This document shows positions 1,677 through 63,580 of a stretch of DNA of 64,000 bases, piece after piece (within the stretch, counting starts at the first letter, position 1; each line of letters opens with the position of its first letter). The translations under genes were made by a program, and so were the position numbers. Source of the stretch: an uncultured Chloroflexia bacterium. GTDB lineage: Bacteria; Chloroflexota; Limnocylindria; QHBO01. The stretch is taken from the NCBI GenBank assembly GCA_963720505.1, contig CAVRFT010000006.1:3781-67780 (forward strand). The letters run 5' to 3'. A model generated the notes under the pieces. The model ran no database searches and was not told where the DNA came from. It was given only the letters and a program-made list of their open reading frames with translations.

Positions 1677-3034
1677 TGCCCGCCACCGTCAACCCCCTGC
1701 GCCCCGTAGCCGGCGCCCCGCGGCCCTACCACTTCCCCGACTTCCATCGGACACAGCTCGCCAACGGCCTGACGGTCTGGACGGTGTCCGTGCCAAGCGC
1801 CGCCGTGGTCAACGTGCACCTGCTCGTGGATGCGGGCGCGGCGGCGGAGGACGAGGCCCACGCCGGGGTGGCGGCCCTCACCGCCCAGCTGCTGGTCACC
1901 GGCACGCGGCGCCTGGATGCCGCCGCCTTTGCCGAGGCCACCGAGCGGCTCGGCATCGAGGTCAGCAGCGAGTCGAGCTGGGACTCGGCGCGCGCCGCCT
2001 TCCAGTCGCTGCCCGAGCACGCGGAGGACGGCATCGCGCTGCTCGCAGAGATGGTCCGCGAGCCGCGGCTCGACAGCGGTGAGTTCGATCGGCTCAAGGC
2101 GGAGCGCCTCGCCGACATCCTGCAGGCTCGCGCCGATCCCGGCCGCCTGGCCGACGAAATGTTCCTGCACCACCTGTTCGACGCATCCACGCCGTACCGG
2201 CGCCTGTCGGCGGGCACCCCGGAGACGGTGGAGGCCCTCACCCTGGATGACGTGCTCGCCTTCCAGGCCACGCACTGGGGTGCCGGCACGGCACACCTGA
2301 TCGTCGCCGGTCCGGTGGAGCCCGAGACGGTGGTGCAGGCCGCAGAGCGCCATCTCGGCGATTGGACGGGCGGACGGGCCGGTCATCGGACCTTCACGCC
2401 GAGAGCAGCCGGCGCCCGGCGGGTGGTGATCGTCGACCGGCCCGGATCGGTGCAGAGCGAGCTGCGCGTCGGGCACCTGGGCATCGATCGCCGCTCGCCG
2501 CGTTACTTCCCGGCCATGGTGCTCGGAGCGATCCTGGGCGGCGTCTTCGGCTCGCGCCTGAACCTGCGCCTGCGCGAGGAGCTGGGTTACACCTATGGTG
2601 CCCGGGCGGGATTCGACCCGCGTCGAGCGCCCGGTCCCTTCAGTGCCGCCACGGCCGTGCAGACTGAGGTCACCGCTGACGCGCTGAAGGAGGTGGTGGA
2701 CCTGCTGACCCGCGTCCGAGACGCGGCACCCGAGGAGTCAGAGCTCCACGAGGTGCGCGACTTCCTGGTGGGCGTCTTTCCGCTGCGGTTCGAGACCACC
2801 GGTGGCGTGGCCATGGCCATGGAATCGCTGGCCGTCTACGGCCTGGCGGACGACTACTGGCAGACCTACCGCGCGCACCTGGAGGCCGTCCAGGCGGACG
2901 ACATCCTGTCGGCGGCGCGCGACCTGTTGATGCCCGACCAGTTCCTGATGCTGGCCGTGGGCGACGCCTCGCAGATCCGCTCGACGCTGGAAGCAGCCAA
3001 CCTGGGACCGATGGAGGTCACCCAGGTCGACTGA
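1676..3034 (+). CDS. M16 family peptidase, non-catalytic partner subunit
   Basis: ORF 1676..3034 with an ATGA stop/start overlap with the upstream M16 gene. M16-like layout (LANGLTVW...) but no HxxEH motif. Confidence 0.85.
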   Translation: MPATVNPLRPVAGAPRPYHFPDFHRTQLANGLTVWTVSVPSAAVVNVHLLVDAGAAAEDEAHAGVAALTAQLLVTGTRRLDAAAFAEATERLGIEVSSESSWDSARAAFQSLPEHAEDGIALLAEMVREPRLDSGEFDRLKAERLADILQARADPGRLADEMFLHHLFDASTPYRRLSAGTPETVEALTLDDVLAFQATHWGAGTAHLIVAGPVEPETVVQAAERHLGDWTGGRAGHRTFTPRAAGARRVVIVDRPGSVQSELRVGHLGIDRRSPRYFPAMVLGAILGGVFGSRLNLRLREELGYTYGARAGFDPRRAPGPFSAATAVQTEVTADALKEVVDLLTRVRDAAPEESELHEVRDFLVGVFPLRFETTGGVAMAMESLAVYGLADDYWQTYRAHLEAVQADDILSAARDLLMPDQFLMLAVGDASQIRSTLEAANLGPMEVTQVD

Positions 3035-4180
3035 CCCCGCTTCCCGGTGCCTCAGCCCGTGGAGCCCAGCGCCTGCAAGGAGCCGGTCATTCTCGGCCGG
3101 CGCCCGGACCGTGATGCGCAGCCAGTCGCGCAGCGGACCAGCCGGATAGCTGCGCAGCGCCAGCCCCTGGCGCAACAGCATCTCGGCAATGGCGTGGGCA
3201 TCCGGCGGTCGCACCAGCAGGAAGTTGGCGAGCGAGGGCAGCACCTGCCAGCCAAGGTCGCCAAGGGCGGCGGCCAGGCGTTGGCGCTGCGCCACGATCT
3301 CGGCCAGCCGGGCGCGGGCGGCGGTGGGATCGGACAGGGCGGCGATGGCGGCCGCCTCGCTGGCGCCGCCGATGGCCAGCGGCAGGCGCGACGCCTCGAA
3401 GCGAGCGGCCAGCCCATCGGGCACGACCAGGTACCCCACCCGCGCGCCGGCCAGCCCGTAGGCCTTGGCCAGTGAGCGCAGGATGAGCAGGTTCGGGAGC
3501 CGGTCCTGCAGGCTCAGAAGGCTGGCGCCCTCGGGCGGCAGGTCCAGCGAGACCTCGGCCATCTCCTGGTAGACCGTGTCGACCACCACCATGGCGGGCA
3601 GCCCATCGGCCAGGGCGGCGACCTCGTTGGCGGTGTACCAATCGCCGGTGGGGTTGTTCGGGGAGCACAGCCAGACCAGCTTGGCGCCGGCGTGCTCGGC
3701 CGCCTCGCGGATGCGCCCGACCGGCTGTCGCTCGCCGGGGTCGTCACGGGCGACCTCCACCACGCCCGCACCTGCCAGGCGCGCCTCGACGCCGAACATC
3801 GCGAAGGTCGGAGTCGGGATGACCACGGTGTCGCCCGGGCCCACGGTCATCGTGCTGACCAGTCGGATCAGCTCATCGGCGCCAGCTCCGGGGATCACCC
3901 GATGGCCCGGCGCGCCGGTGACGGCCTGGATCGCGGCCCGCAGGTGACGGTAAGCCTGGTCGCCGTATTCGACCAAGCGGGCGGGATCGAAGGAGCGCAA
4001 GGCCTCGACCACGGCCGGCAGGGGGCCGCCACCCAGCGTGTTCATGTCGAAGCGAACCACCCGCTCCGGTGGCAGGCCGAGCTCCTCCGCCAGCTGCTCG
4101 TCCGACGGTTCGGCCGGGTACGGCTCGACGGCGTCGCGCAATCGCAGCAGATCGGTCGGCCGCGGCGCGGAGCCCGTCAC
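2738..4180 (-). CDS. class I/II aminotransferase, histidinol-phosphate aminotransferase-like
   Basis: SPNNPTG and SLAKAYGLAGARVGY (PLP lysine) motifs. As sequenced, the ORF runs 297 nt into the convergent M16 gene. Removing one base near 3078 gives ...APAENDRLLQALGSTG* ending at 3052, which I think is the real 3' end. Confidence 0.8.
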   Translation of the reverse strand: MTGSAPRPTDLLRLRDAVEPYPAEPSDEQLAEELGLPPERVVRFDMNTLGGGPLPAVVEALRSFDPARLVEYGDQAYRHLRAAIQAVTGAPGHRVIPGAGADELIRLVSTMTVGPGDTVVIPTPTFAMFGVEARLAGAGVVEVARDDPGERQPVGRIREAAEHAGAKLVWLCSPNNPTGDWYTANEVAALADGLPAMVVVDTVYQEMAEVSLDLPPEGASLLSLQDRLPNLLILRSLAKAYGLAGARVGYLVVPDGLAARFEASRLPLAIGGASEAAAIAALSDPTAARARLAEIVAQRQRLAAALGDLGWQVLPSLANFLLVRPPDAHAIAEMLLRQGLALRSYPAGPLRDWLRITVRAPAENDRLLAGAGLHGLRHREAGSVDLGDLHRSQVGCFQRRADLRGVAHGQHQELVGHQQVARRRQDVVRLDGLQVRAVGLPVVVRQAVDGQRFHGHGHATGGLEPQRKDAHQEVAHLVEL

Positions 4181-5668
4181 GCGCTGACGGTCGCCGGTTC
4201 GGCATCCCTGCCGTCCCCGGTGGCTGCGCCCCTGGGCCAGGCCAGCACGAACGAGGCGCGCGGCCGACGCTCCTCCAGGCGAACGGTACCGCCCTGCGCC
4301 TGCATGGCGGCGTTGACCAGGAAGAGGCCCAGGCCCAGCCCTCGGCCGGAGCTGACGCGCTCGTGGAACAGCACATCGGCCACCTCGTCGGGGATGCCCG
4401 GTCCGGCGTCGCGCACGCGCAATAGCGGGGCGTCGCGGCCGTCGATCTCGACGTCAACCGGTGCGTCGGGTTGCGAGTAGCGGTCCGCATTGGTCAGCAG
4501 GTTCGTGATCGCCTGCTCGGTCAGGCCCCGATCGCCCAGCACCAGCGGCTTGCCACGGGCTGCGACTCGCACCTCGCGTTCGCTGCCCTGGGCGCGCAGC
4601 CGCTCGACGCCGGCGTCCACCGCTGCGCGCAGGTCGAAGGGTTCCTGGCTGGCGTCCAGCCGCCCGGCCTCGGCCCGCGAAAACAGTTCCAGCCGCTCGA
4701 GGATCCCGATTGCCGCGTCGACGGATTCCAGCGCCCGCGCCCCATGATCGACGCCGCGACCACGGCTCATGCCCGCGATTGGCAAGCTCCATGCGCGCCT
4801 TGGCCACCGCCAGCGGATTGCGCAGCTCATGCGCCACGAAGCTGGCAAATCGCGAGAGGCGCCGTCGCTCGTCGACTTCCTTGCCAACGTCGCGCAGCAG
4901 CAGGACCGCGCCTCCGTCCGGCAGGGGCGTGCCCTCCACCTCGACAAGCAAATCGCGCCCTGACATCGGCAGGCGCACCAGGACGCGACTGCTCACCGGC
5001 CCCGATCGCGCGCGCAGCTGTGGCCACTCGTCGCGTGGCAGCGGCCTTCCCCCTTCGTCGCGCGGCTCGGCGAGGCGCGCCCACTCGTCCAGCGGCCGGT
5101 CGAAGAAGCTCCGCCCGAAGACCCGCAAGGCGGCGTTGTTGGCGAACGTGCCCATTCCATCGGGCCCGTAGACGATCAGCGGCTCCGGGATCGCCTGCGC
5201 CACCTCCGCCAGCCGCGCGCGCTCTCGGTCGACCTGCTCCAGGGCGTCGCGCACCTGCTGGCGGGCCGCATCGGCCGCCAGCCTGGCCTGGTTGGCGTGT
5301 TCCTCGGCCGCGCTGCTGGCCTGCCGGGCGGCGCGATCCGCCTTCTGCTGCCACTCCGACCGCAGCCCCAGCACGATCACCACCGGCGAGCCGAAGGCGA
5401 AGACCACTAGGCGCACGATGTCCGGCTCGGCCATCGTTTCGCCGGGCAGCGGCAGCGATGCGACCAGCAGGATCACGCCCGCCACGACATAGGCAATGAG
5501 CGCCGGGATGGCTCCCAGGCTCAGGCCGATAAGGGTGATGACCAGCACCACCAGGACGACGTAGGGCGCCGACTCGGCTGTGCTCGACGCCAGCCACAGT
5601 GACAGTGCTGCCGCCGCGCCTCCCGCCAGGGCGCCAAGGACCGCGTTGCGAATGCCCCGCCGCGTCAC
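4177..5668 (-). pseudogene. sensor histidine kinase (membrane N-terminus, PAS-like, HisKA, HATPase_c), frameshifted near 4780
   Basis: ORF 4454..5668 carries the TM segments and H-box FVAHELRNPL. ORF 4177..4947 carries ...FSRAEAGRLD and the ATPase motifs (LLTNADRYS, DAGPGIP, GLGLGL). They join as ...KARMELA|IAGMSRG with one extra base. Confidence 0.8.
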
Positions 5669-5682
5669 CTCAGCGGCGAAGC

Positions 5683-6906
5683 CTAGCGCACGCCCGCGGC
5701 GACAACGTCGGCGCGCAATGGCTTGTCGGCCAGGTCCGCATCCCGCAGCTGGGCGCGGCGGCCGGCCCTCTCCGCCGCCGCCGCGGCGCGCTCGCGCGCA
5801 CGAACCAGCCGGCGACGGGCGGCCGCAATGCGGCGCACCGGGTCGCCGCCGATCCGGCGGCGGTCCAGTGCCTGGGGATGATCACCGCGCGCGAGCGCCG
5901 CGAGCAGCGCGGAGGCGCGATCCAGCTGGCCGGCCTCGGTCAGCAGCTGAACGATGCTGAACCATCGCGCCGGCTCGGTGACCCGCTGGGACGCGACCCG
6001 CTCGACCACCTCCGCGGCTCGCCCGAAGTGACCGGCCCGGCGCAGCGCCATGATCGTGGCGCGCACGTCCGGGATCCCGGGCTCCATGTCGAGCGCCTCC
6101 AGGTAGTTGAGCAGCAGCTCGGCGGCCTCCGCGCGATCCTCCACGCTGCCGCGCCGCACGCGCTGGTCGCGAAACTCGCCGAGCAGCGCCCTCAGCTCGC
6201 GGTCCACCCATCGGCGCTGGCTGCTGTTGGCGGGATAGCGTTCGGCCATCTGGCGCAGGAAGCCGATGCCGCGCAGGTACATGCCGTTGCTGACGTACGC
6301 CGCTCGCAGGTCCGCCTGTACCAGTGTGTCGAACGCGTCTTCCAGCTTGACCAGCCGTTCCAGCGTGCCGATCCAATCCTCGCTGCTGCCCCGATCCCGG
6401 TAGTAGCCGGCCGCGTAGCGCAGCCAGTAGCGCTCGCTGTGGGTGCGCCAGTCCTCGCCGGTGATGTGGTTGGCCACGATCCAGGCGTTCTGGACGCTTG
6501 GGCCTGCCATGAAGACGTCGGCGGGGACGCGGAAGCCGGCCACGTTGCGCCACTGGGGCTGGTGCCAGCGGCTCGGAGGCTGCTCCGCCCGCGGGACTCT
6601 CCGCCGCCGAGCGGGTGCCGGCGTTTCGTCCGCCTCCAGCGGCCAATCCAGTGTCGCCGCCATGCCGCGCTCGAGGTCGTGGTCGTAGTGCAGCCGGCGC
6701 AGCGGATCGCGCAGCTCTCGCCAGGCCCGGTTGAGGACCGCGGTGCGGCGGGTCGCCAGCTGGCTGGCCGTGGCGCGGTCGGGATGGTGGCGCAGCACGG
6801 CGTCGCGGAAGGCGGCGCGCAGCTCGGCGGACGTGGCGGAGGGCTCGGCGCCCAGCACCTCGTAGTAGTCGCGCTCCTCGGTGCGTGCCTCGCGTTCGAC
6901 GGCCAT
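5683..6906 (-). CDS. J-domain (DnaJ-like) protein with a helical-repeat C-terminal region
   Basis: In-frame ATG 6906 inside ORF 5683..7947. Sequence MAVEREARTEERDYYEVLG...LRHHPDR contains the HPD motif. About 300 aa of helical sequence follow. The upstream part of the track ORF is antisense to cphB. Confidence 0.75.
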   Translation of the reverse strand: MAVEREARTEERDYYEVLGAEPSATSAELRAAFRDAVLRHHPDRATASQLATRRTAVLNRAWRELRDPLRRLHYDHDLERGMAATLDWPLEADETPAPARRRRVPRAEQPPSRWHQPQWRNVAGFRVPADVFMAGPSVQNAWIVANHITGEDWRTHSERYWLRYAAGYYRDRGSSEDWIGTLERLVKLEDAFDTLVQADLRAAYVSNGMYLRGIGFLRQMAERYPANSSQRRWVDRELRALLGEFRDQRVRRGSVEDRAEAAELLLNYLEALDMEPGIPDVRATIMALRRAGHFGRAAEVVERVASQRVTEPARWFSIVQLLTEAGQLDRASALLAALARGDHPQALDRRRIGGDPVRRIAAARRRLVRARERAAAAAERAGRRAQLRDADLADKPLRADVVAAGVR

Positions 6907-10796: not shown

Positions 10797-12413
10797 TCCG
10801 CCGACAGCAGCTCGCGTAGCCGGCGCAACGGCACCGGCTGGTAGCCGGCCGACGTGAGCCAGGCGGCGATCTCGGCGCGCTCGACGTGGGTCATGACCGC
10901 GACCACGTCCCCCTTCCTTGCCCGCTTCTCCAGTGCCTGGAGGGCGGCCAGCTCGCTCGGGAGTGCTTCGACCTTGCCGGTGAAGCCGCCCTCCTTCACG
11001 CCGCCGCGCAGGATCCGGTTCATCCCCCCCAGGTCGCGCCCGCGCAGGTAGTGGCGCTTCTCGCAGATGACGACGTCGTCGGCGCCCGCACCGGCCAGGC
11101 GGCCCAGGTTGCGGAGGATCTCGTCGGTCCGGTCGCCCGCCGTACCCAGCGCCAGCCGCACCTTGCCGCGGCGGCCGCCGCCCGGGCGCGTCGTCAGCTG
11201 ACGTGAGACGTCCAACAGACCCTGCAGACCGGCCTCGTTGTGAGCGAAGTCGATCAGCACCAGCCGGCCGCGTCGCTCGTACAGGTTGAGGCGTCCCGGG
11301 TTGGCGCCGGTGTCAAGCTCGAAGGTGCGCAGCCCGGCCGCGATCCGCTTGGCCGTGAAGCCGAGGGCATCCGCCGCGGCCGCCGCGGCCAGCGCATTGG
11401 CCACGTTGTAGGTGGAGAGGCCGCCGAAGGTGACCGGCAGCTCGGCGACCGGTGCGATCCGCCGCGTGCGGCCACCTTCCCGCAGCAGGGTCACCATCCC
11501 GTCGACAATGATCGCCGCCCGTCCGCCGCGCGCCAGCGCCTCGCGCACGCCCGGGCTGTCGGGTTCCAGGCTGAACGCGTACCAGCCGGCACGCGTCTGG
11601 CGGCGCATGGCCCACACCCGCGGATCGTCCGCGTTCAGCACCGCCCAGCCACCGCGGCGGGTGATCCGCACGATGGTGGCCTTCACCTCGGCCAGCTCGT
11701 CAAGCGGTGTCGATGCCCTGCAGGCCAAGATGGTCGGCCGAGACGTTGGTGACCACCGCCACGTCATTGGCGGCATAGCCGATGCCGCGCAGCAGGATCC
11801 CGCCGCTCGCCGTCTCCAGCACGGCCAGCTGCAGGCCCGGCTCCGCCAGAACGCGGCCGGCACCGCCGAAACCGGTCCAGTCGCCGGGCTCGACCAGCTT
11901 GTCCCGGACGTAGATGCCGTCCGAGTTGGTCATGCCCACCCGCCGACCGGCCTCGCGCGCGATATGCGCAATCAGGCGCGTGGTGGTGCTCTTGCCGTTG
12001 GTGCCGGTGACCGCCACCACCGGAACGTGCGGCGTCGGCAGGTGGGGGCGTGGGCCGGGGGCGATTGCGCGCAGCGCACGAAGCTCGCGGCGCTCGCTGG
12101 TGATGCCCAGCGCCACGCGTGACGCCGCGGTCCCAATCGCCTGGGCGACGGCCCGACGGTGCCATTGGAAGGCGATCGCCGCCCGCCGGCGGTCGTGCGA
12201 GTCGCGGGTGGTGACCCGGGGTGGGTTCAGGTCCAGGGCGGCGTACAGGTGCCGAACGACCTGGCCGGCGGCGGTGGCCGCCTCAGCGGCGACGCCCGGC
12301 TCATCGGCTCCGAACTCGAGCTTGACGGCCGGTCGGGTGAAGAACCGGTTGGGGCCGTCCAGCACGCGGAGCTCGAGCAGCTCGACCCCGTCGGCGCGGG
12401 CGGCCTGCGGCAT
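10793..12413 (-). pseudogene. CphA paralogue with N domain plus Mur-ligase (M) domain only, no ATP-grasp; frameshifted near 11705
   Basis: ORFs 11700..12431 and 10793..11863. VELLELRVLDGPNRFFTRPAVKLEF parallels the CphA N domain and runs directly into VVAVTGTNGKSTTTRLIAHI...NVSADHLGLQGIDT|LDELAEVKA...NADDP. About 540 aa. Start taken at ATG 12413 (the track uses GTG 12431). Confidence 0.75.
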
Positions 12414-12420
12414 GGCCGGC

Positions 12421-12428
12421 AGTATACT
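12421..12428. promoter_or_regulatory. palindromic AGTATACT, a candidate shared bidirectional -10 element for two divergent leaderless genes
   Basis: Only 23 nt separate ATG 12413 (minus) and ATG 12437 (plus). TATACT reads on both strands, 7 and 8 nt from the respective ATGs. Confidence 0.45.
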
Positions 12429-12436
12429 CACGCGCC

Positions 12437-13604
12437 ATGCCGCCCCCGCTCAGCCTGCACGAGGCCGTCCAGGCACGCCTGCCGCGGTACCTGGCGGAGC
12501 TGGAAGCGCTCGTCAACATCGATTGCGGGTCGTACACACCGGCCGGCGTGAACCGGGTGGCCGACCTCGTCGCGGCCTCGCTGGCCGAGCTTGGCGCCAC
12601 GCGTCGAGCGCATCCCTCACGCCCCAGCAGCCGGTGAGCCGCAGCTGGGCGACCTGGTCATCGGCCACCTGCCCGGCGACGGGCCGCGTCGCCTGCTGAT
12701 CGGCCACATGGACACCGTCTTCGATGAGGGAACGGCGGCCGAGCGCTCGTACACCGTGGACGGCGACCGCGCCATGGGGCCTGGCGCAAGCGACATGAAG
12801 GGCGGCCTGCTGTCCGGCCTGCACGCCCTCGCAGCGCTGCACGAGGCGGACGAACATCCGGCCATCACCTTCGTGGCCAACCCGGACGAGGAGATCGGCT
12901 CCATCTTCAGCGGCGCGCACATCCGTCAGCTGGCGCCCGAGCACGATGTCAGCCTGGTGCTGGAATGCGCCCGCGCCAGCGGCGCCATCGTCAGCGCACG
13001 CAAGGGCATCGCCGACCTGGAGCTCATCTTCAGGGGCCGCGCCGCGCATGCGGGCGTCGAGCCGGAGAAGGGCCGCTCCGCCATCCTGGCCGCGGCCCGG
13101 CAGGTGGTGGCACTCCATGAGCTCAACGGTCGCTGGCCCGACGTGACGCTGAACGCCGGCGTGATCGCAGGGGGCACCCGGCCGAACGTGGTGCCGGCCG
13201 ACTGCCGGCTGCAGCTGGATCTCCGGGCGGCGACCGCCGACGCATTCGACCACGCCCGCGCCGAGGTGCAGCGCCTGGCCGCGGACAGTCCCATCGCGGG
13301 CGTGACATGCGAGGTCCGCGAGCTGGCCAGCCATCGGCCGATGGAGAAGACGCCCGCCATCGCTCGCCTGGCCGAGCTGGCCATCGGCATTGCCGGCGAG
13401 CTGGGCTTCGAGCTGACGGACGCCGCCACCGGCGGCGCCAGCGACGCCAACACCACCGCCGGGCTGGGCGTGCCGACGCTGGACGGCCTCGGCCCGATCG
13501 GCGGCGACGACCACTCGGCGGATGAATGGCTGGACCTGGCCAGCGTGGTGCCGCGCACAACCCTGCTGGCGACGCTGATCGCCCGTGTCGGGGAGGCACT
13601 GTAG
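12437..13604 (+). pseudogene. M20 family metallopeptidase (carboxypeptidase G2 / ArgE-DapE-like), frameshifted near 12600
   Basis: ORF 12437..12637 (LVNIDCGSYTPAGVNRV) joins ORF 12591..13604 (LLIGHMDTVF, GPGASDMKGG, NPDEEIGS, HAG.EPEKGRSA, GGDDHSADEW). Confidence 0.8.
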
Positions 13605-13607
13605 AAT
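13602..13607 (+). promoter_or_regulatory. candidate -10 box (tGTAGAAT) 9 nt upstream of the thioesterase GTG
   Basis: Sequence ctGTAGAATcggcgctccGTG. The box overlaps the TAG stop of the M20 gene. Confidence 0.35.
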
Positions 13608-13616
13608 CGGCGCTCC

Positions 13617-14058
13617 GTGACTGACGACTTCCGCCACCGCACGCGCGTCGAAGTGCGATTTCGTGACATCGACGCCTTCGGACACGTGAACAACGCCGTC
13701 GTCTCCAGCTACCTCGAGCTCGCCCGGATCCGGTACCTGGTCGATGTCCTGCAGGTGGAGCCGATCGGCGTCATGCCGCTGATCCTGGCCCACATCTCGA
13801 TCGACTACCGCTCGCCGATCTTCTTCACCGACACCGTGGAGATTGGCTCGCGCGTCGACTGGCTGGGCACCACCAGCATCGGCATGTCGCACGAGATGAC
13901 CGCCGCTGCGGATGGCCGCGAGCTGGCCCGATCCTCATCGGTCCTGGTCACCTACGACTACGAGCAGAGCCGGCCGATGCCGGTGCCCGACGACTGGCGC
14001 CGGGCCGCTGGCGGCGTACGAAGGCCACGCCCTGGAGCGGCCGATGGCCACCGCATGA
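13617..14058 (+). pseudogene. 4HBT/YbgC-like acyl-CoA thioesterase; 3' end shifted near 14007
   Basis: VRFRDIDAFGHVNNAVVSSYLELAR hot-dog fold signature. As sequenced it reads in frame into lpd. Removing one base gives ...DDWRRALAAYEGHALERPMATA* with its TGA overlapping the lpd ATG (ATGA at 14055). Confidence 0.65.
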
Positions 14059-15474
14059 GCGAGACCATGCAGTTCGACCTGCTGATCCTGGGTGGCGGCA
14101 TGAGCTACGTGGGCGCCATCCGGGCTGCGCAGCTCGGCCTGAAGGTGGGCCTCATCGAACGCGACAAGCTGGGCGGCACCTGCCTGAACCGCGGCTGCAT
14201 CCCGTCGAAGGCGCTGCTCGAGACGGCCGACCTGCTCCATCGAGTTCACGAGCAGGGCGGCGAGTTCGGCCTGGCCGGACATGAGGGCATCAGCCTTGAC
14301 TACCCGGCCCTGGGTGCGCGGCGCGACGCCGTGGTCGACAAGCACGTCAAGGGCGTCGAGTTCCTGCTGAAGAAGAACGGCGTGACCGTCATCAAGCGGG
14401 CACGGCACACTCATCGGGCCGACCAGCGTCCGCGTTTCGGGCGGCGAGTCGGGTGACGTGGACGCCAGCGGCACCGACCTCATCCTGGCCACCGGGTCGG
14501 CACCCCGGTCGCTCCCCGGCCTGGACATCGACGGCCATCGCATCATCACCTCCGATGAGGCGCTGCAACGCGCCGACGTCCCGCGCAGCGCGACGATCGT
14601 GGGCGCCGGGGCGGTCGGCGTGGAGTGGGCCAGCATGTACCGCGACTTCGGGGCGGAGGTGCACCTCGTCGAGTTCCTGGACCGGCTGGTGCCGCTGGAG
14701 GATGCCGACGTCAGCAAGGAGCTGGGGCGCGTCTTCCGCAAGCGCGACATCACCGCGCATCTGTCCTCGACCATCGACACCGAGAGCATCCAGCCCACCG
14801 ACGGCGGCCTGCGCTTCACCGTCGCCGCGCGCGACGGCGACAAGCGCACGGACGTGGAGTCGGACCTGATCCTGGTGGCGGTCGGACGGCGGCCGCTGAC
14901 CGAGGGCATCGGCCTGGAGGCCATTCCCGGCGTTGAGCTGGACCGCGGCTACGTCAAGGTCGACGGCTGGATGCGGACCGGCGCCGAGCACCTGTACGCC
15001 ATCGGGGACATCGTGCCGGGCTTCGCGCTCGCCCACGTCGCGGCCCACGAGGCGGTGGTTGCGGCCGAGATCATCGCCGGCCACGACCCGGCGCCGGTGG
15101 ACATGAGCCTCATGCCGCGCGCCACCTTCTGCCGCCCGCAGATCAGCAGCGTGGGCATGACCGAGGCGGAGGCGCGCGAGGCCGGCCACGAGGTCAAGAC
15201 CGGCTCGTTCCCGTTCCGCGCGCTGGGCAAGGCGACGATCGTGGGCGAGGTGGACGGGTTCGCCAAGATCGTGGCCGATGCGGGGACCGGCCTGATCCTG
15301 GGCGCCCACATCATCGGCCCGCACGCCGGCGACCTGCTGGCCGAGCCGACGCTGGCACGCCTCGTGGAGGGGACCGCCGGTGAGATCGCGATGAGCGTCC
15401 ACGCCCACCCGACGCTGACCGAGGCGCTGGCCGAGGCGGCGATGGCAGTGGACGGCGCACCGATCCACATCTGA
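14055..15474 (+). pseudogene. lpdA: dihydrolipoyl dehydrogenase (E3), frameshifted near 14397
   Basis: FDLLILGGG...GGTCLNRGCIPSKALL (redox disulfide) in frame 0. After ...VTVIK|GHGTLIGP the remainder (ORF 14458..15474) has IVGAGAVGVE, YAIGD and HAHPTLTEAL. Confidence 0.85.
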
Positions 15475-18073: not shown

Positions 18074-18123
18074 CGACGGATCGCGTGCCGGCGCGGCGCG
18101 CCAACCTTGGAACGAGGGACGAA

Positions 18124-19631: not shown

Positions 19632-20650
19632 TCAGCGCCGCGCGGCGCGCCGTCTTCGTCGCCGCGCAGGCGCCGCACGGCCGGAATCCAGGCCAGCGCG
19701 CCCGACCGTCTGCAGCGCCACCCACAGGACGACCAGCAGGCCCGGGCACGCCAACCACGGCCGCCGGCACCGACCAGGTGCCGAACCCGTCGAGCACCGT
19801 CAGCGTGCCGGGGCCGAGCGCAGATCGGATCCCGGATCGCGCGCGCGAGGCGCGGCGCCGCGACGGCTGACGATCCGCCTGCCGGCGCCCGGCTCCGGCG
19901 TCGAGTCGCCACCGAGCCGCCGGGGAGCGGCGTCGCTGGATCAGGGTAGCCGATGCGGAGGCCGACGATGACGGCGCGGGCGCTGGTCGACGGCTCGCGG
20001 ACGCTGGGCGCTGCGGTGGACGGCGGCCGTCGACGTCGGGCAGCAGGCTCGGCAGCGGTGGCAGCAGAGACGGGCAGTGCGGCGGCAGGGACATCGGGCA
20101 GCGACGGCGTCGGCGTGGACGCGCGGTGGGGTTCGGCGTGGGCGTCGGAGTCGCCGTGGCCTGGGCGTCGGCGCGGGAAGCAGCGCAGGCAGGACCGACC
20201 ACCTGGACTGGCAGGCCGACCTCGGTCAGGCCGGCTGCAATCCTGCTGCCGATGCGCATGGTTCGGCCACGGACGTCGTCCCGGCCGTCGACGGCGTGGC
20301 CTTCACCTGGAAGGTCACCGACTCGCCGATGTTCAGGCGGCCACCGCCGCTCAGGCTGCGGACCTCGACCGTGGAGCCGTTCTGCGCTCGCCGCCCAGTT
20401 GTCGCCGTTGGACGCCGTGGGGTCGCCGACCGGACTCGATCGCGAAAGATGACGGCAGGGTGACCTCCATGCAGCCGAGGTCGTCCGGCCCGGCAACGTT
20501 GGTGGCGGTCATGGTGAAGACGGTCCCCTGACCGGCGCGTCACGGTCAGCGGGCAGGACCACGAAGGTCCAGACCAGCAGTCCCGCCGCAATCTGCGGAA
20601 GGGCGGCGACTGCCAGTCGCCACGGCAACGGCTGCAAGCGCGCGACGCAT
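19632..20650 (-). pseudogene. putative membrane-anchored secreted protein (signal anchor, Ig-like region, Thr/Pro linker, C-terminal TM plus Arg tail), heavily frameshifted
   Basis: Stitched across all three minus frames: [27 protein letters not shown] / [32 protein letters not shown] / [16 protein letters not shown] / [36 protein letters not shown] ... ATATPTPTPNPT ... PGLLVVLWVALQ..RRRRRR*. No family recognised. Confidence 0.3.
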
Positions 20651-22505: not shown

Positions 22506-22646
22506 AGGGCGGCACCGTACGGAGCCCGAGTCCCATGGTCGATAGGACGAAGGTTGCCCATCGTCCCGGGCGCATTTGAGGCCCGCTGTCAGGGCTCGGC
22601 ATGAGCCTTCTGGGCCTGGGACCCGCAACGTACTTCGGTTCGATCC

Positions 22647-46410: not shown

Positions 46411-46503
46411 CCCGGCGTCCGGCCTCCCTTCCAAGCACGCCGCGTCTCCGCGCCGGTGAGGGCTGCCCGCTGGCCCACCACGTGCAGCACAATGTGCGCC
46501 GTC

Positions 46504-48579
46504 ATGCAGAGGAACCAGCCCGACCGGAACGGGCCTGAATCACGCCGCGTCGACCCGCTGCTCGAAGTGAGGGAGCGGAAGGTCGGCGCACGTCCGGGTG
46601 ATGCCTACGTCCGTATCGTACGGCCCTTCGACGACGAGTTCGAGCGGTCCGACGAAGGGACGCTGATCGCCTCGGAGAAGACCATCCTGGACCGGCGTGG
46701 CTGGCATGCCGCGATGCGTGGATTCCGCACCGCCCTGATCGGTCGACCCATCTCCACGGAGCACGAGGAGCACGAGCGGCTCAGCAAGACAAAGGCGCTG
46801 GCCGTCTTCAGCAGCGACAACATCAGCTCCAGCGCGTATGGACCCGAGGCGATCATGCGGGTGCTGGCACTGGCCGGCGTCGCCTCGCTGTTCCTCACCG
46901 TCCAGCTGACGGTGCTCATCATCGTGATGCTGGCCATCGTGACGGTCTCCTACCGCCAGACCATCAAGGCCTACCCGATGGGCGCCAGCAGCTACATCGT
47001 GGCCAGCGACAACCTCGGCGACCAGGCGGGCATCCTGGCGGCATCGGCGCTGCTCATCGGCTACACCGTCACGGTGGCCGTCTCCGTGTCCGCGGGCGTG
47101 GCGGCCATGACGTCGATCATCCCGCAGATCTACGAGTACCGCGTCTACATCAGTGTTGCCCTGGTTGCGCTGCTCATGCTCGGCAACCTGCGGGGCATAC
47201 GCGAGTCGGGGACCATCTTCATGGCGCCCACTTATCTGTACATCGTGGTCATGACGGGGCGTGATCGCCTGGGGCCTTCTGCAGGCCTTCACCGGCACGT
47301 TGGCCTCGTTCCAGCCGCCGGCGAGCTGGGTCGCACGATTGGGAGGCCAGCGGACAGGCACTGGGACTGCTCCTGATCCTGCGCGCCTTCTCCCAGGGTG
47401 CGGTGGCCCTGACCGGCGTCGAGGCCGTCTCCGACGGCGTGCCCGGCCTTCAAGCCACCCGAATGGAAGAACGCCCGGGCGACGCTGACCTGGGCTGCCA
47501 TCGTCTTCGGCATCCTGTTCCTGGGCATCGCCTACCTGGCCACCTTCGTTGGGATCGTGCCCGATCCGAACGAGACGCAGACCGTGCTCAGCTTGCTCGT
47601 CCGGCAGATCGCCGGAGACGGATTCGTCCTGATCCTGGCGCAGGTCGCCACCGCCCTGATCCTGGTGCTGGCCGCCAACACCAGCTTCGCCGACTTCCCG
47701 CGCCTCTCGTCGTTCCTGGCCCGCGACGGCTTCCTGCCGCGCCAGTTCGCCTTCCGGGGCGAGCGGCTGGCCTTCACCACCGGGATCATCGCCCTGGCGG
47801 GCATGGCCATCGGCCTGCTCATCATCTTCCAGGCCAGCGTCAGCGGCCTGATCCCGCTCTACACGCTGGGCGTGTTCATCGCGTTCACACTGTCGCAGTC
47901 CGGCATGTTCGCGCGCTGGTACCAGCGCCGCGAGCCCGGCTGGGTGCGCGGCCTACTCATCAACGGCCTTGGCGCCCTCACCACGGGGGTGGTGATGATC
48001 GTCGTGGGGGTCAGCAACTTCTTCAACGGATCCTGGCTGGTGATCGTGCTGGTCCCGATCCTGATGGTCTTCCTGTCCGGCATCCGCCGTCATTACCGCA
48101 ACCTCGACGATCGACTGGCGCTCGAACGGATCCCGGCCGGCAAGGAAGTGGCCGCCGAGCCGATCGTGATCGTGCCTGTGGCGCGGCTGGATCGCACCGC
48201 GCGCCAGGCGATTGCCTTCGCCAACTCGATCAGCAAGACCGCTACGGCAGTGCACATCACCAACAACCCCGAGTCGGCCGCCGAGCTGCGCGAACGCTGG
48301 CCGGACTGGGCCGGCTCGACGGAGCTGGTGGTGGTGGAGTCGCCCTATCGGGCCCTGGTCGGCCCATTGCTGCGCTACATGGACGCGCTGCAGGCCCAGG
48401 ATCCCGGCCGCCCGGTACTGGTGGTCCTGTCGGAGGTGGTGCCGCGCCATTGGTGGGAGAACCTGCTCCACAACCAGACCGCCCTGCGCCTGAAGCTGCG
48501 CCTCTTCGCCCGGCCGAACACGATCGTGGCCGACGTCCCCTATCACCTGCCCATCGACGAGTCGACGCGCCCGGGCTAG
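46504..48579 (+). pseudogene. APC superfamily permease with a C-terminal cytoplasmic domain, three frameshifts near 47257, 47334 and 47445
   Basis: RLSKTKALAVFSSDNISSSAYGPEAIM..., then VIAWGLLQAF, then LGLLLILRAFSQGAVALTGVEAVSDGVP, then AFKPPEWKNARATL, with the remainder in ORF 47557..48579. The frames cycle 1,2,0,1. Confidence 0.8.
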
Positions 48580-54891: not shown

Positions 54892-56336
54892 TCAGCAGGC
54901 GAAGAGCTTGGTGGCCTGACTCGGCCCATGGTCGGCGTCCCCGCGGAACCTGGCCACGACCCGGCATCGGCCGGGATTCGGTCGCGGGAACTGGGTCGCG
55001 AAGTGGCTGTCGGTGAATCCATCACCGCTCGGATCGGACCTTCCGAAGAGGAAGGGCCGTCTGACGCCCAAGAGCACCCACGCGCCGTTCCGCATGCGGG
55101 TCAGGGTGACGACCATGCGCTTGCCCGGATGGGCCGGTGAGAGCCGGCCCTGGACACGGACCCGGCCATTGACCTTGCTCGTCACGAACCGCGTCCACGT
55201 ATCGTCGTCGCGGATCAGCCCGCTGGCCTGGCCGTGCTCGATGGCTGCCCCGGCCGATGGGTTGATCAGGCTCAGGAAGAAGCGTTCGCGGTGCTCCAGC
55301 CGTCGATCAGTCACGATCTGGACCTGGACGGTGGCCGTGGTGGCGGAGGCCGCAAATGCCAGGTTCCCGGAGGCGCTCGCGAAATCGGAGGGCGAGAGCG
55401 CGCTGCCGCCGGTGGTCTGGTAGTCGACGTTCACGGCCGTTGTCGTTTCGCCAGAGCGAGTGACGGTGAAGGTGAGCGTCCTGGTTCCCCCGCTGCCCTC
55501 CCGGACGGTGGCGCCGGTCACGTTGAGGACCGCAGATCCGGGCGGGATCGGGTCGTTGTCCTGGATGGTGACCACGGTCGGATGCGCGCCCAGCGTGGCG
55601 TTCACCGGGTTGGCGAGGTCGACGTCGAAGGTCTCGTCGCCTTCTGCATCAATGTCGCCGTTCACCGGGACGACCACCGACGCCGCGGTTTGTCCGGCGG
55701 CGAAGTCGAGCGTCCCGGCGGTCAGGTCGTAGTCACTGCCCGCTGTCGCGGAGCCGTTGACCGTCGTGAAGTCGACCGAGACCTGCCTACCGCTCGCCGC
55801 CGACAGCGTGACGTCGACCGATGCGAACGGGGTGTCGCCGGTGTTGCCTTCCGGAACGGTCAGGGTGGCGACCGACGACACGGTCGGCGGCGCGTCGTTG
55901 TCGGTGATCGTCCCCTTGCCCTCGTCGTCCGCGAGCGTCACGCCGACGGGATTGGTCAGGCGGACGAAGAACGTCTCGTTTGCCTCGTCGAGCGTGTCGC
56001 CCACGACGGTGATCGCGACCTTGTTCGTCTTGTGACCGCCGGCGAACTTCAGCGTCCCCGACCGCGCCAGATAGTCGGCCGGACTCGAGGCCGTGCCCGC
56101 CGCGGTCGAGTAGCGCACGGATGACTTGCCTCGCGCGCTCTGGGTGATCGTGAACGTCGCGGTCACGGTGCCCAGGTTGCCTTCGGTGACGGTGACGTCA
56201 TTGATGGAGAGCGTCGGCAACGGAGCCGCAAGCGAAGGAGCTGGCGCCGAGATCACGCCGGATACGGCCGCGGTGAGCGAGGAGCAAAAGCGGTCGGAAG
56301 CGGGTGACCGTTCGAGGGCGGCGCAAGGGGGTTCAT
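54892..56336 (-). pseudogene. secreted Calx-beta repeat protein (about 4 repeats) with a C-terminal beta-rich domain; two shifts in the signal peptide
   Basis: Repeats such as SINDVTVTEGNLGTVTATFTITQS..SSPADYLARSGTLKFAGG..VVGDTLDEANETFFVRL. GGAGAA lies 8 nt before ATG 56336. The corrected N-terminus is MNPL|RRPRTVTRFRPLLLLA|LTAAVSGVISAPAPSLAA. Confidence 0.8.
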
Positions 56337-56497
56337 CGAGTTGGTTCTCCTGTCGTCTTCGCGGGCAGATTCGAAGCCGAGCCCGGCTCATCGAGCGAAC
56401 CTTAGACTGTTCGGCGCCCCGATCGGGGAACAATTCGTACTACCGCCGGTAGGAGCCAGCCGGTCCTCACGGGCGGCGAGCAGCCACCCATCGGTCC

Positions 56498-56945: not shown

Positions 56946-59481
56946 CTACTCGAAGTGCTTGAGGCTGTCCGTGATGGGCAGACGGGCCGCCGATCGCGCC
57001 GGGTAGATGCCCGCCACCGAGGCGACGCCGATACCCAACAGCACGACCGCTGCCAGCAAGCCCCAGGGAACCGCGATCCCACCCGCAAAGTCGTTCGGTG
57101 CCGCCACGGTGATGGTGACCCATGCCACGACCCCGCCGATGGCCACGCCCGCCAGCCCACCCACCGCACCGATGATGCCTGCCTCGGTCACGACCATGGC
57201 CTGCACCTGCCCGACCGTCATGCCATGCGAGCGCAGGATGGCGATCTCGCGACCACGCTCCAGCACCCCGACCGCCAGCGTGTTCACGATGCCCAATCCA
57301 CCGATCACCACCGCCAGCACCGCCAGCAGGTCGAACAGGCCAATGACCCGATCCAATGACCGGCCGAGGTCGCTCGACAGCTGGGCGGCGGAGAGCGGCT
57401 CGGCGGAGTACAGCGCGGCCCTCTTGGCCACGGCCGCCCGGAACGTGTCGGTCGGGACCCCTGGCTGCGGCTGCAGGGCGTAGAGGCTGGCCTGGGTGAC
57501 GCCGAACGAGTCGCGCGCATCGGCCTGCCTCATGAGGATGGCGCCCTCGGTGGTCCGCGTCGGCAGCGAGTAGGCCACGATGCCGGCGACGGTGAACGGG
57601 ACGCCGTCGCCGCCAGGCTGCGCCAGCGTGATCGCGTCGCCGACCGACAAGCCCGTCGCGGGTGGCGATCGACTCCGGGAGCAGCACGGCACCTCCTTCA
57701 TCCAGCGCGTTGAAGGCATCGCGCCGCTCGCCGGCCACGAAGATCAGTGATCGCGTGTCCTGGAAGTCTCTGGGGCCGATGCCGGCGACGCCAACCTCGC
57801 GCTGGCCGTCATCGGTCACCTCCACCGCGGGAAACTCGCTGATGGGCATGACCCGATCGACGCCGGTGATGGTCGCCAGGTCGTCGCGCACTCGGTCGAT
57901 CTCGTCGGCGGTGGTCAGGCGGATGGCGTAGCCGCCGGGCAGGATGGAGCGCACCCATACGTCGGCGGTCGCGCGGGCGGAGGCGGTCACGATGCCGAGC
58001 GCCACGACCGACCCCAGACCGATGGCCAGGGCAGCCACCGTCAGGCCGGTGCGCACCGGATCGCGGCCCAGGTTGGCGCGGCCCAGCTCCCCCTGCGCGC
58101 CGAACAGGGCGGCGAAGGGGCGGCCGATGAGGCGCGCGAAGGGCTGGAGCCCGATGGCAGCGAGCAGCGCCCCGGCCAGCAGGATGCCCACCGCCAGCAG
58201 CGCGCCCGAGAGCGATGCGTCCCCGCGCTGGAGCGGGTACGCGACCACGCCCACCGCCACGGCGGCGATGACCAGGCCGATCACCCACGGCAGCCGTCCG
58301 CCCAGGGTGCGACCCGGCTGGGATGGCCGCAGCGCGTCGAGCGGCGACAGCCGCGAGGCCGCCAGGGCGGGCACCAGGGCACCAGCCAGGGTGACGAGGG
58401 CGCCGAGGACGAAGGCCAGCAGCAGGGCCACCGGATGGAACGGCAGGCCTCCAATGAGCAGCGCACGGCTCGATTGCAGGACGGTGATCAGGATGGCCGC
58501 CACCGCCACGCCCAGCAGCACCCCGACGACGCCACCGAGCAGGCCAAGGGCCAGGCCCTGGCGCAGGAAGAGCCCCATCACCTGTCGTGAGGTGGTGCCC
58601 GCCGCCCGCAGCAGCCCGACCTCGCGGGTGCGCTCGGCCAGGGTCATGGCCAGCGTATTGGCCACCAGGAACGCTCCCACGGCCAGCGCCACCAGCCCGA
58701 ACAGGAAGGCCAGCCCGGCGAACCCGGCCTGGGCGCGGCCCAGCTGCTGCTCCGCATCCGCCACCGTCTCCACCACGAACGGCTCGGTCATGGTGCGGTC
58801 CAGCGCGGCCAGGACCTCGTCCTCGGCGCCCTCCGCCACCTTCAGGTCGACGTAGCGAACCGGCGTCGGCACGGCAAAGGCCTCGGACAGGAAGTCCGAG
58901 TTGAGCACCACCACCGAGCCGGAGCCCAGCGCGCCGAAGCCCGCGTCGCCCAGCAGGCCGACGATGTGGTTGTAGGGCGGGTGCGGCGCCGAGTTCAGCC
59001 ACAGCTCGTCCCCCACCCGGAGGCCGTTGGCGCGGGCCCAGGCGGCGTTGACGAGCACGCCGGTTGGATCGTCTGGATCCAGGAACTGCCCGTCCACCAG
59101 CTCGTAGGAGCGGATCTGCGCCTCGTCCTGCGGATCGACGCCGATCAGCAGCATGGTGAAGACCTTCTCGTCCGGCCCGGGCCTGGTCGTCACGCTGCGG
59201 CCACGCTCCTCGATCACCGCCGAGCCGGTGCTGACGCCGGAGATGGTCTGGATGTTCTGCACGGTGCGCGGCGTGAAGCCATCAGGTTCGAAGGCGCGGA
59301 CTCGGATCGAGGCGGAACCGAACAGCTCCTGCGCGGCGCGCCGAACGGCCTCGGTCGCTGCCTGGCCGGCCATCAACGCGGCCGCGATGACGGCCACGCC
59401 CAGCGCAACGCCCAGCACCGTGAGGCCGGTGCGCAGCGGCCGGCTGGCCAGGCTGCGCCACGCGAGGGCCGACAGGTGCAC
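56946..59481 (-). pseudogene. ABC transporter permease with two FtsX domains (MacB-type), frameshifted near 57663
   Basis: LAWRSLASRPLRTGLTVLGVALGVA..ERTREVGLLRAAGTT..LSPLDALR, then a second module ending REIAILRSHGMT..ARLPITDSLKHFE* (ORF 56946..57719). The junction is a CC run read as CCC. Confidence 0.85.
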
Positions 59482-59484
59482 GCG

Positions 59485-61236: not shown

Positions 61237-61489
61237 AATCCGGCGCGCTCCTTTCGGTGTCAGGCGTGCTCGGGAGCAGCCATCACCCTACGACCGCCAC
61301 ACGCCAGAGGCACTAGCACGGTGGTCCGGTTGGCCCCCATGACCCAGATGCCGCTGGGTCAGGGGTGGGGTAGGACTTTCGGCCCACTGTGCGGCACTTT
61401 ACCGCTGGTGGGGCGCCGCGTCCCTGGCCGTCGAGGATGGCTGGCGGCGGCGGATAATGGTATGGCCGATGCCATGAACGGAGGGCTCC

Positions 61490-61886
61490 ATGAGCGAGCG
61501 AACGGAGAGCGCCGAAGCCCCGGAGGCGGCACAGGCGCCCAATCCCGACCAGGGCGATGGACCCTGGCCGAACGGGATGCCCTACACCGTCCAGTTCCCC
61601 GGCGAGGATGGCAAGCGCTGCAGACCTGGAGCACCCGGCGCCGCTGCCGCGGGTCGGGGACCTGGTCGAGTACATCGACGAGACCGGCGTAACGCACCGA
61701 TATCGTGTTCGCGAGGTGGTTCACACCCTGCAGACCACGGCCGCACACCGACCGCACGTCGCCGATGGAGCGGCTTCACCGCAGGCCATCGCTCGTCTGG
61801 CCGACGGGGACGCGGCAGAGCAGCCCGGTGAGGGCGGCGAGCTGCGAGCCGGCCTGCCCAAGGTGATCCTCGAGGCGGCTGACTAG
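61490..61886 (+). pseudogene. hypothetical protein, frameshifted near 61618
   Basis: GGAGGG lies 5 nt before ATG 61490. MSERTESAEAPEAAQ..PYTVQFPGEDGKR|ADLEHPAPLPRVGDLVEYIDETGVTHRYRVREVVH... Confidence 0.45.
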
Positions 61887-61961
61887 CTTGCAGCCTGCGT
61901 CAGCACCGGTGGGCATGACGCTGGCTTAACCGTGATTGCTACGCTTGCTGCGGTGGGAACC

Positions 61962-62412
61962 ATGCGCGTCCTGTTCGTCTGCACCCATAACTCGGCTCGC
62001 TCGCAGATGGCCGAGGGCTTCCTGCGGGAGTACGGCGGCGACCGTTTCGAGGTCTATTCGGCCGGGACCGTGGCCACCGTGGTGCATCCCGAGGCGATCA
62101 AGGCCATGGCCGAGGTCGGAATCGACATCTCGCGCCACGAAAGCAAGACCGTGGAGCGATACCTGGGCGAGTCGTTCGCCTGGGTGATCACCGTCTGTGA
62201 TCAGGCACGCGAGGCGTGCCCGGTATTTCCCGGCGCTGACGAGACGGCCCACTGGGGATTCGACGACCCCTCGGCGGCGACCGGTGACGAGGCCGCACGG
62301 ATGGCCGTATTTCGCCGGGTTCGGGACGAGATCGCCAGGCGCGTCCGCATGTTCGCCCTGGCGGCCGGGCGCGGCGACGTCCCCGAACGGCCAGACCACC
62401 ATCCTGGGCTAG
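61962..62412 (+). CDS. arsC: arsenate reductase, LMW-PTP (thioredoxin-coupled) type; 3' end uncertain
   Basis: MRVLFVCTHNSARSQMAEG (CX5R loop)..VITVCDQAREACPVFPG..WGFDDP. As sequenced it reads in frame through the arsR operator into arsR. The next frame stops at 62410..62412. Confidence 0.8.
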
Positions 62413-62452
62413 CGACCCGACCGACTGGCCCGCCTCACCCGCGTCACGCCAC

Positions 62453-62477
62453 ATATATTGACATCCGTCGATATAAT
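62453..62477 (+). promoter_or_regulatory. AT-rich imperfect palindrome ATATATTGAC-atcc-GTCGATATAA overlapping a perfect TATAAT -10; candidate ArsR operator plus leaderless arsR promoter
   Basis: The arms match 8 of 10. TATAAT (62472..62477) lies 6 nt before ATG 62484. This is the most AT-rich 25 nt in this part of the window. Confidence 0.55.
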
Positions 62478-62483
62478 GGCGGC

Positions 62484-62778
62484 ATGAAAGCCACCGATCC
62501 CGAGGTCCAGCTGCTGCAGGCCATGGCCGACCCGGTCCGGCTTTCGATCGTCCGTCAGCTGGCCGCCGGCGATGACGCCGTCTGCGCGTGCGACTTCACC
62601 GAGTGCTGCACCGTCAGCCAGCCCACCGTCAGCCATCACCTGAAGGTCCTGCGCGATGCCGGCGTGGTCACCACCCGCCGCCAGGGCACCTACATCTATT
62701 ACCGGCTGGCCCCCGACTTCGCGCAGCGCTGGGCCAACCTCGAGCGCCGGCCTGGCCGGCCTGGTGGCAATCGCCTGA
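62484..62778 (+). pseudogene. arsR: ArsR/SmtB family metalloregulator; 3' end shifted near 62745
   Basis: LLQAMADPVRLSIVRQLAAGDDAVCACDFTECCTVSQPTVSHHLKVLRDAGVV. The corrected tail ..WANLEAGLAGLVAIA* stops at 62778, 15 nt before arsM, which has a GGAG Shine-Dalgarno sequence. Confidence 0.8.
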
Positions 62779-62793
62779 ATCGAGGAGCGTCCG

Positions 62794-63580
62794 ATGAGCC
62801 TACCCACCGAATCCACCATCCACGAGGAGGTCCGTCAGCGCTACGCGGCCTCGGCTCGCCAGGTCATGGCGTCCGGCGACGCCGCCTGCTGTGGCGAGCA
62901 GGGCATCGGCGCCGAGCTGTACAGCGTCCTCGAGAGGCAGGAGCTGCCCGATGCGGCCGTGCTCGCCTCACTGGGCTGCGGCAACCCCACCGCCGTGGCC
63001 GAGCTGCGGGAGGGCGAGCGGGTGCTCGACCTCGGTTCGGGCGGCGGCATCGACGTGCTCCTGTCGGCGAAGCGCGTGGGGCCGAGCGGTCGCGCCATCG
63101 GCCTGGACATGACCGACGAGATGCTGGCCCTGGCTCAGCGCAATGCCGCGCAGGCCGGCGCCACGAACGTCGAGTTCCTCAAGGGCCACATCGAGGCGAT
63201 CCCGCTCCCGGCCGATTCGATCGATGTGGTGATCAGCAACTGCGTGATCAACCTGGCCGCCGACAAGCCGGCGGTGTTCCGCGAGATCGCCAGGGTGCTC
63301 AAGCCCGGTGGGCGGATGGGCGTCAGCGACATCGTGGCGGAGGACTCCCTGACCGCGGCCGAGCGGGCGGAGCGCGGGTCGTATGTCGGCTGCATCGCTG
63401 GCGCGCTGTCGTTCAGCGAGTACGAGGCGGGCCTGACGGCCGCCGGCCTGGAGCGACGTCTCGGTCACGCCGACCCACGCGGTCGCGGACGGCATGCACA
63501 GCGCCATCGTCAAGGCCACCAAGCCGATGACTGCCACGCCATCGGTCCAACTCTCGAACAGGCCGGCGAGCTGCCGCTAG
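62794..63580 (+). pseudogene. arsM: arsenite S-adenosylmethionine methyltransferase, frameshifted near 63453
   Basis: LGCGNP, then [12 protein letters not shown] (SAM motif I), then VISNCVINL, then GCIAGAL, then GLE|[24 protein letters not shown]. The shifted frame stops at TAG 63578. A Cys-rich tail follows in the same frame, ending at 63619. Confidence 0.85.

Follow-up and report, generated by a model that had tools for sequence, protein, structure and literature searches.

The genome of an uncultured soil bacterium of the Candidatus Limnocylindria (Chloroflexota) contains a 64,000-nucleotide stretch (the window; G000:C6:3781-67780) in which many genes are divided between adjacent reading frames, raising the question of whether these frame breaks belong to the DNA of the organism or arose when the sequence was assembled. 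The stretch comes from G000, a metagenome-assembled genome (MAG) of 2.53 Mb in 7 contigs with 70% GC, whose lineage agrees with the labels of relatives found through the cyanophycin synthetase gene cphA. The comparisons described below point to consensus errors of the assembly rather than features of the organism's DNA, a reading to which we assign a probability of roughly 0.93. It is drawn from lesions that are private, biased towards insertion, free of sequence context and spread throughout the genome, that hit essential genes including rpoB, and that are accompanied by neither private nonsense codons nor relaxed selection.

The comparison set comprised 12 genomes of the same genus, 11 of them in 130-490 contigs and one (G011) in 7. 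Four fragmented MAGs served as references (SMAG_U3990, G002; SMAG_U3906, G012; SMAG_U7036, G003; SMAG_U3925, G001), all with MEGAHIT-style k141 contig names. They are syntenic with the window at 74-91% nucleotide identity, and G011 at 86-89%. Three methods were applied. A seven-state Viterbi frame segmentation, trained on the codon usage of 458 long open reading frames (ORFs) of G000, detects frame switches independently of homology; its totals include only same-strand switches whose boundary lacks a stop codon. tblastn searches used orthologous ORFs from the four fragmented MAGs as queries. Finally, six-genome MAFFT alignments in 1 kb chunks were combined with frameshift-aware dynamic programming, which aligned intact orthologous proteins to the DNA, and private indels were counted only in gap-free, well-aligned context. 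Pairwise blastn indel counts are noisy at 75-89% identity, where only a net excess is informative, and multi-genome support and the private indels were used in their place. Gene families were assigned by Pfam on the intact orthologues.

Frame breaks in the window and in its relatives

Frameshift-aware alignment placed approximately 69 frame breaks in 27 of the roughly 60 genes of the window (~45%). About 60 consist of one extra base, four of two extra bases and five of one missing base. Approximately 35 are spread across the window and 34 lie within a hot spot of 2.9 kb (19.63-22.5 kb), giving an insertion density of ~12 per kb in that segment against ~0.6 per kb in most of the window. The breaks outside the hot spot comprise ~33 single extra bases, one double insertion (22680) and one deleted base (~40810); within the hot spot, bases are missing near 20980 and 21820 and at two sites in the gene at 19.63-20.68 kb.

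An earlier note on this DNA, made from its letters, had described ~45 frameshifts, almost all with one extra base, in about 27 split genes. The number of genes proved to be exactly 27 and the bias towards one extra base is real, but the breaks had been undercounted, and the hot spot, credited with at least 13, holds ~34. Two exceptions to the one-extra-base rule had been named, near 21030 and 40810; both are one-base deletions (near 20980 and 40810), but they are joined by the deletion at 21820, the double insertion at 22680 and several events in the 19.63-20.68 kb gene. The individual junctions that it listed were reproduced by the three independent methods. Viterbi switches fell at or within ~20 nt of 4780, 11705, 12600, 14397, 18893, 22986, 24111, 24244, 28119, 28384, 29268, 34148, 34744, 34981, 35725, 38289, 41298, 41358, 42709, 43158, 43552, 47256, 47332, 47442, 57654, 62778 and 63453. 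Eight junctions overlooked by tblastn (3078, 18800, 18890, 22686, 29266, 29421, 56279 and 62745) were then confirmed in local alignments, the one at 22686 being an insertion of two bases placed at 22680-22681. The weakest are 23592, backed by a single query, and 56329, backed by comparison with G011. Pfam on the intact orthologues bore out the gene identities given in the note (lpd, E2, aceE, ndh, plsY, pgsA, APC permease, FtsX/MacB and Calx-beta), and the stretches of 4-6 kb that it had called clean are indeed free of breaks (cphB-cphA, 29.4-33.7 kb, 43.7-46.4 kb and 48.7-54.6 kb).

Insertions probably also fall outside genes, as an extra base at 40263, absent from four relatives, lies in a stretch that the Viterbi segmentation called non-coding. 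A comparison of coding and non-coding insertion rates was uninformative, since most "non-coding" calls are broken genes that the segmentation failed to phase and true intergenic DNA is too short.

The lesions were then sought in the relatives. The earlier note had held that closely related genomes carrying the same interrupted genes would speak for real lesions; none of the window lesions was present in the four fragmented MAGs. Only one of 43 insertion columns (41359) coincides with an insertion in G011, where the base is G rather than the A of the window, and the four fragmented MAGs lack any extra base there. Approximately 0.06 coincident columns are expected by chance, and the coincidence may be due to chance or to a weak context-specific systematic error. 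Private single-nucleotide insertions and deletions in the MAFFT alignments numbered 43 and 1 in the window and 74 and 9 in G011, compared with 4 and 3 in G002, 0 and 3 in G012, 1 and 0 in G003, and none of either kind in G001. Two longer insertions are also private to the window relative to all aligned relatives, 13 nt at 23580, just upstream of a P-type ATPase gene, and 10 nt at 19973.

The other methods gave the same division. By tblastn, frame-switch clusters numbered 41 in the window (33 being of the +1 type), 54 in G011 and 3-6 in the fragmented MAGs, where most represent one common gene-overlap site or ORF starts, i.e. artefacts of the method. That overlap site, at 6930-7000 and at the orthologous positions in G012, G003, G002 and G001, is where two convergent or overlapping genes meet; the apparent switch there is an artefact of tblastn counting and not a lesion. 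In syntenic regions the Viterbi segmentation found 26 +1 and 3 other switches in the window, 37 +1 and 10 other in G011, and 0-5 in total in the fragmented MAGs. Frameshift-aware event clusters numbered 72 in the window, 114 in G011 and 10-16 (raw) in each fragmented MAG, of which just 1-3 were backed by at least two query genomes. Thus, both assemblies in 7 contigs are affected and the four fragmented MAGs, in 130-290 contigs, are not: the syndrome follows assembly type, not phylogeny. Lesion load also rises as estimated completeness falls, G011 carrying more at 58% and G000 fewer at 71%, with same-genus MAGs of similar size in 130-290 contigs reaching up to 92%. A search of Joint Genome Institute (JGI) metagenome contigs for an assembly of the same species returned nothing above 87% amino acid (aa) identity, and a search for encoding contigs with a protein of the window itself found no record.

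Essential genes, selection and genome-wide extent

The gene for RNA polymerase subunit beta, rpoB, illustrates the problem. Among the fragmented MAGs searched, those holding the whole gene (G012 and G003) have it as one uninterrupted frame of 1174 or 1186 aa. The G000 copy, whose protein is 95.5% identical, is broken by two single-base insertions, and the G011 copy by one, at a different site. Other genes of the indispensable type are broken within the window (aceE, lpd, E2, plsY and pgsA).

The broken genes otherwise resemble functional ones. Stops within tblastn high-scoring segment pairs were seen in all genomes including controls, because high GC content yields shadow or antisense ORFs among the queries, and that count was replaced by a codon-by-codon test limited to Viterbi-supported frames. 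Across 16,924 aligned codons, this test found no nonsense codon that the window alone carries; the sole stop opposite a reference sense codon, at 19632, is shared with G003 and G001. The nonsynonymous-to-synonymous difference count was 0.56 for the window and 0.57 for G011. Proteins are 80-95% identical across the breaks, and 92-95% aa identity is retained by aceE and by heavily broken genes such as rpoB and a gene for a GGDEF/HD-GYP signalling protein. The latter is 92% identical to its G002 orthologue in spite of 15 lesions, and a real pseudogene with 15 indels would be expected to show many more substitutions. aceE is 94% identical to its G002 counterpart on either side of its break. Judged from these substitution patterns, selection still looks intact, with no sign of relaxation.

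The breaks extend well beyond the window. Viterbi segmentation of the whole of G000 gave at least 1,318 switches (1,065 of the +1 type and 253 others), every large contig carrying 5-7.5 per 10 kb of coding sequence. The sensitivity of the segmentation outside the hot spot is ~60%, from which we estimate roughly 2,000 coding indels genome-wide and about half of all genes broken. Switches are densest on the small contigs G000:C5 (17 kb) and G000:C1 (10 kb), at 17 and 9.7 per 10 kb of coding DNA, respectively, which would fit lower coverage.

Sequence context and uneven density

The earlier note had also proposed that the lesions are often G/C runs one base too long, and this did not hold. At the 43 well-placed insertions the run length was 1 at 30 sites, 2 at 10 and 3 at 3, a distribution not far from the background of all bases (57%, 33%, 8% and 2%). 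An identical base adjoins the insertion at 13 of the 43 window sites and 22 of 74 sites in G011, compared with ~49% for random insertion. The inserted bases (G 18, C 15, A 8, T 2) roughly follow composition. No motif was detected within 10 nt of the 43 sites read in gene orientation, the maximum of 0.25 bit corresponding to the 95th percentile of random sites, and neither these sites nor the 74 in G011 have a codon, slippery sequence or 4-letter word in common. The insertions are thus independent of sequence context. Explanations invoking homopolymers, dinucleotide repeats or a motif were all rejected on the evidence of the window and G011 sites.

Counts of breaks in 10 kb bins are over-dispersed (variance-to-mean ratio 2.2-3.4), and empty bins are more numerous than a Poisson distribution predicts. 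Frame switches are also denser where local GC is high: 10 kb bins of G000 with less than 66% GC have 2.5 per 10 kb and those with more than 72% have 8.6 (Spearman 0.31); this trend may be a real effect on the error rate or may reflect greater sensitivity of the detector at high GC. The hot spot (19633-22550) holds its ~34 events in two adjacent minus-strand genes at ~20 times the density elsewhere. One encodes the GGDEF/HD-GYP protein and the other a putative surface protein, 70% identical (aa) to an intact 331-aa orthologue in G002. The hot-spot segment has no match in G011, G009, G010 or G006 and is present in G002, G001, G012, G003, G005 and G004. We infer that its consensus is backed by fewer reads. 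Variability between genomes does not by itself explain the hot spot, since a second variable segment is free of errors. This block, at ~50690-54600, contains two fused ABC exporter genes, adjoins tRNA-Arg(TCG) (50591-50666), has a slightly lower GC content (66-68%) and is without a match in G011 and the four further relatives searched, so that it resembles an island.

Genes of the window affected by frame breaks. Positions are those of the window.
Gene or product	Span	Strand	Breaks
Class I/II aminotransferase	3055..4216	-	one extra base near 3075-3079, near the C-terminus; ORF runs on to 2738
PAS-HisKA-HATPase sensor kinase	4180..5716	-	one extra base near 4760-4780
Mur-ligase-like protein	10799..12449	-	one extra base at 11705-11706
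M20 peptidase	12392..13601	+	one extra base at ~12600-12602
4HBT thioesterase	13605..14055	+	one extra base at 14007
Dihydrolipoamide dehydrogenase (lpd)	14022..15471	+	one extra base at 14394-14397
2-oxoacid dehydrogenase E2	18077..19622	+	extra bases near 18790-18799 and at 18893-18894; the Ala/Pro linker (18400-18593) may hold additional compensating shifts (uncertain)
DUF11-like putative surface protein	19633..20677	-	19 events in 1.04 kb (14 +1, 3 +2, 2 -1); hot spot
GGDEF/HD-GYP signalling protein	20653..22550	-	~15 events (13 +1; -1 near 20980 and 21820); hot spot
DNA alkylation repair protein	22658..23407	-	one extra base near 22985; two extra at 22680-22681
P-type ATPase	23623..25634	+	extra bases at 24109 and 24241; possible one near 23600 (single query)
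Metallo-beta-lactamase-fold protein	27529..28252	+	one extra base at 28116
Second beta-lactamase-fold protein	28282..29011	+	one extra base at 28380
Protein without assigned family	28983..29454	+	extra bases at 29268-29269 and ~29413-29421
CDP-alcohol phosphatidyltransferase (pgsA)	33686..34361	-	one extra base at 34148
Glycerol-3-phosphate acyltransferase (plsY)	34345..35048	-	extra bases at 34741 and 34988
NDH-2 (ndh)	35362..36724	-	one extra base at 35732, within a run of three
Pyruvate dehydrogenase E1 (aceE)	36760..39493	+	one extra base at 38290-38293
DUF2089 protein	40528..40958	+	one base missing near 40790-40816, within an acidic linker of variable length
DUF4097 protein	40959..41980	+	extra bases at 41297 and 41359
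MFS transporter	42338..43672	+	extra bases at 42710, 43164 and 43548
APC-family amino-acid permease	46432..48573	+	extra bases at 47254, 47334 and 47442; net +3 restores the original frame
Calx-beta repeat protein	54895..56338	-	one extra base at 56279; plausible second at ~56329 (G5 run, G4 in G011)
MacB/FtsX-type permease	57231..59484	-	one extra base at 57652
135-aa protein, no Pfam family	61478..61883	+	one extra base at 61613
Low-molecular-weight phosphatase-ArsR fusion	61959..62775	+	one extra base at 62738-62741, 12 codons ahead of the stop
S-adenosylmethionine (SAM) methyltransferase	62791..63616	+	one extra base at 63450-63454; uncertain additional events near 63557-63580

Among the neighbouring genes, the segment 5599-12449 carries cphB (Peptidase_S51) and cphA (cyanophycin synthetase), followed by a second Mur-ligase-like gene on the opposite strand and then by the M20 peptidase gene. 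The arrangement is conserved in the genus and may represent an extended cyanophycin-related cluster.

Probable consensus error, its rivals and known systems

According to the favoured interpretation, stray single bases would have been left in during consensus calling, each shifting the reading frame so that gene callers see split or run-on ORFs. The broken genes (~45% in the window and an estimated half genome-wide) would in turn depress estimated completeness to 71%, and the hot spot and uneven density would reflect locally low or strain-mixed read coverage. The high contiguity (7 contigs) suggests that this was probably a long-read assembly. Our guess is that the insertion-only, context-free signature is closer to the stochastic insertion errors of continuous long reads than to the homopolymer errors of nanopore sequencing. 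Several points weigh against an assembly artefact. The call was made from comparative evidence. Textbook residual error of nanopore data consists mainly of homopolymer deletions, unlike the insertion-only, non-homopolymer signature seen here. The over-dispersion and the ~20-fold hot spot need an additional assumption, for example about local coverage. Moreover, long-read origin alone does not predict the error load: class relatives with Flye-style, MFD-named contigs from a Nanopore project (PMC12313526) have a clean cphA in 22 loci. The problem is therefore specific to G000 and G011, and G000 is not assigned to that project.

If the breaks were instead present in real DNA, they might have arisen by mass pseudogenisation, either through reductive evolution or during an insertion-biased mutator episode. 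The many broken genes, the uneven density with its hot spot in two non-essential genes, and the recurrence of the syndrome in the sister genome G011 would all fit such a history. However, the two sisters do not have their lesions in common, decay would be expected to leave lesions of mixed types including nonsense codons, and protein identity remains high across even the most heavily broken genes. The genes hit include rpoB, aceE, lpd, plsY and pgsA, and no cell is viable when about half of its genes, rpoB among them, are frameshifted. Together with a distribution that tracks contig number rather than descent, this makes pseudogenisation highly unlikely. The preference of the earlier note for artefact over decay is thus supported, also by an rpoB that is split differently in the two assemblies and by low completeness despite only seven contigs. 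Merging of co-occurring strains into one consensus, the extra bases then being a mosaic of genuine strain variation, would account for the over-dispersed density and for the exact coincidence of the hot spot with a segment found in some species of the genus and lacking in others; soil populations are micro-diverse. Real coding variants, however, are overwhelmingly substitutions or in-frame indels, and a mixture alone does not generate 60 insertions against 5 deletions. As a full explanation it is about as improbable as pseudogenisation, and it is better regarded as one factor behind a locally poor consensus, which would still be an artefact.

The strong bias towards one extra base is also what +1 recoding would resemble, with the genes functional as written through programmed frameshifting or quadruplet decoding. 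The absence of any common codon, slippery sequence or 4-letter word at the 43 window and 74 G011 sites argues against this, as do the lack of conservation of the sites in any relative, the insertion at 40263 in a stretch called non-coding, and the relatives that encode the same proteins in one frame; of all the readings we give recoding the least credence. More generally, were the extra bases real, two sister lineages would each have acquired hundreds to thousands of independent single-base insertions in coding sequence, including those in rpoB, along with a context-independent tolerance of +1 shifts or an insertion-biased mutator. This combination is scarcely credible, even less so than pseudogenisation alone, and consensus error remains the favoured explanation.

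The frame breaks are accordingly no biological feature of the organism, and their value is practical. A public genome collection uses G000 and G011 to represent their species, although roughly half of the genes in these assemblies are miscalled. Pseudogenes, gene fusions, run-on ORFs, novel small ORFs and missing pathways reported from either assembly should be distrusted until the sequences have been polished, and the same warning applies to every other finding from G000. Broken marker genes have probably pulled the completeness estimates of the two assemblies (71% and 58%) below their true values. Curators could use the combination of insertion-only, context-free errors and coverage-like hot spots to flag similar assemblies automatically.

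How do these breaks compare with known systems? In Mycobacterium leprae and recent endosymbionts, nonsense and frameshift lesions are mixed, are common to close relatives and accompany relaxed selection, and core essential genes such as rpoB are spared. The window resembles these genomes in the large fraction of genes interrupted, but none of the four decay traits holds here. Programmed sites of the prfB type carry a conserved motif and are conserved across species; the likeness to +1 frameshifting or quadruplet decoding lies in one extra base within a continuous coding sequence, and the difference in the lack of both motif and conservation. Truncation of ORFs by indels is also the problem shown by "ideel"-type plots and addressed by frameshift-aware correction, and Watson and Warr in 2019 reportedly described long-read indel errors as its source. 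In nanopore-only MAGs, indels left uncorrected raise the number of apparent pseudogenes and reduce completeness, above all where coverage is low, and in one example frameshift correction raised completeness from 84.99% to 93.86% (PMC8103633). Long-read MAGs likewise need polishing against indel errors, for which Medaka has been used, and coding density is lower at lower coverage (PMC12313526). The residual indels of nanopore or PacBio continuous long reads (CLR) differ from those described here in that nanopore errors are usually homopolymer-linked with many deletions, whereas here nearly all are insertions outside homopolymers. They are alike in genome-wide gene splits, inflated pseudogene counts and low completeness despite high contiguity, in being worse at low coverage, and in being absent from short-read assemblies of relatives.

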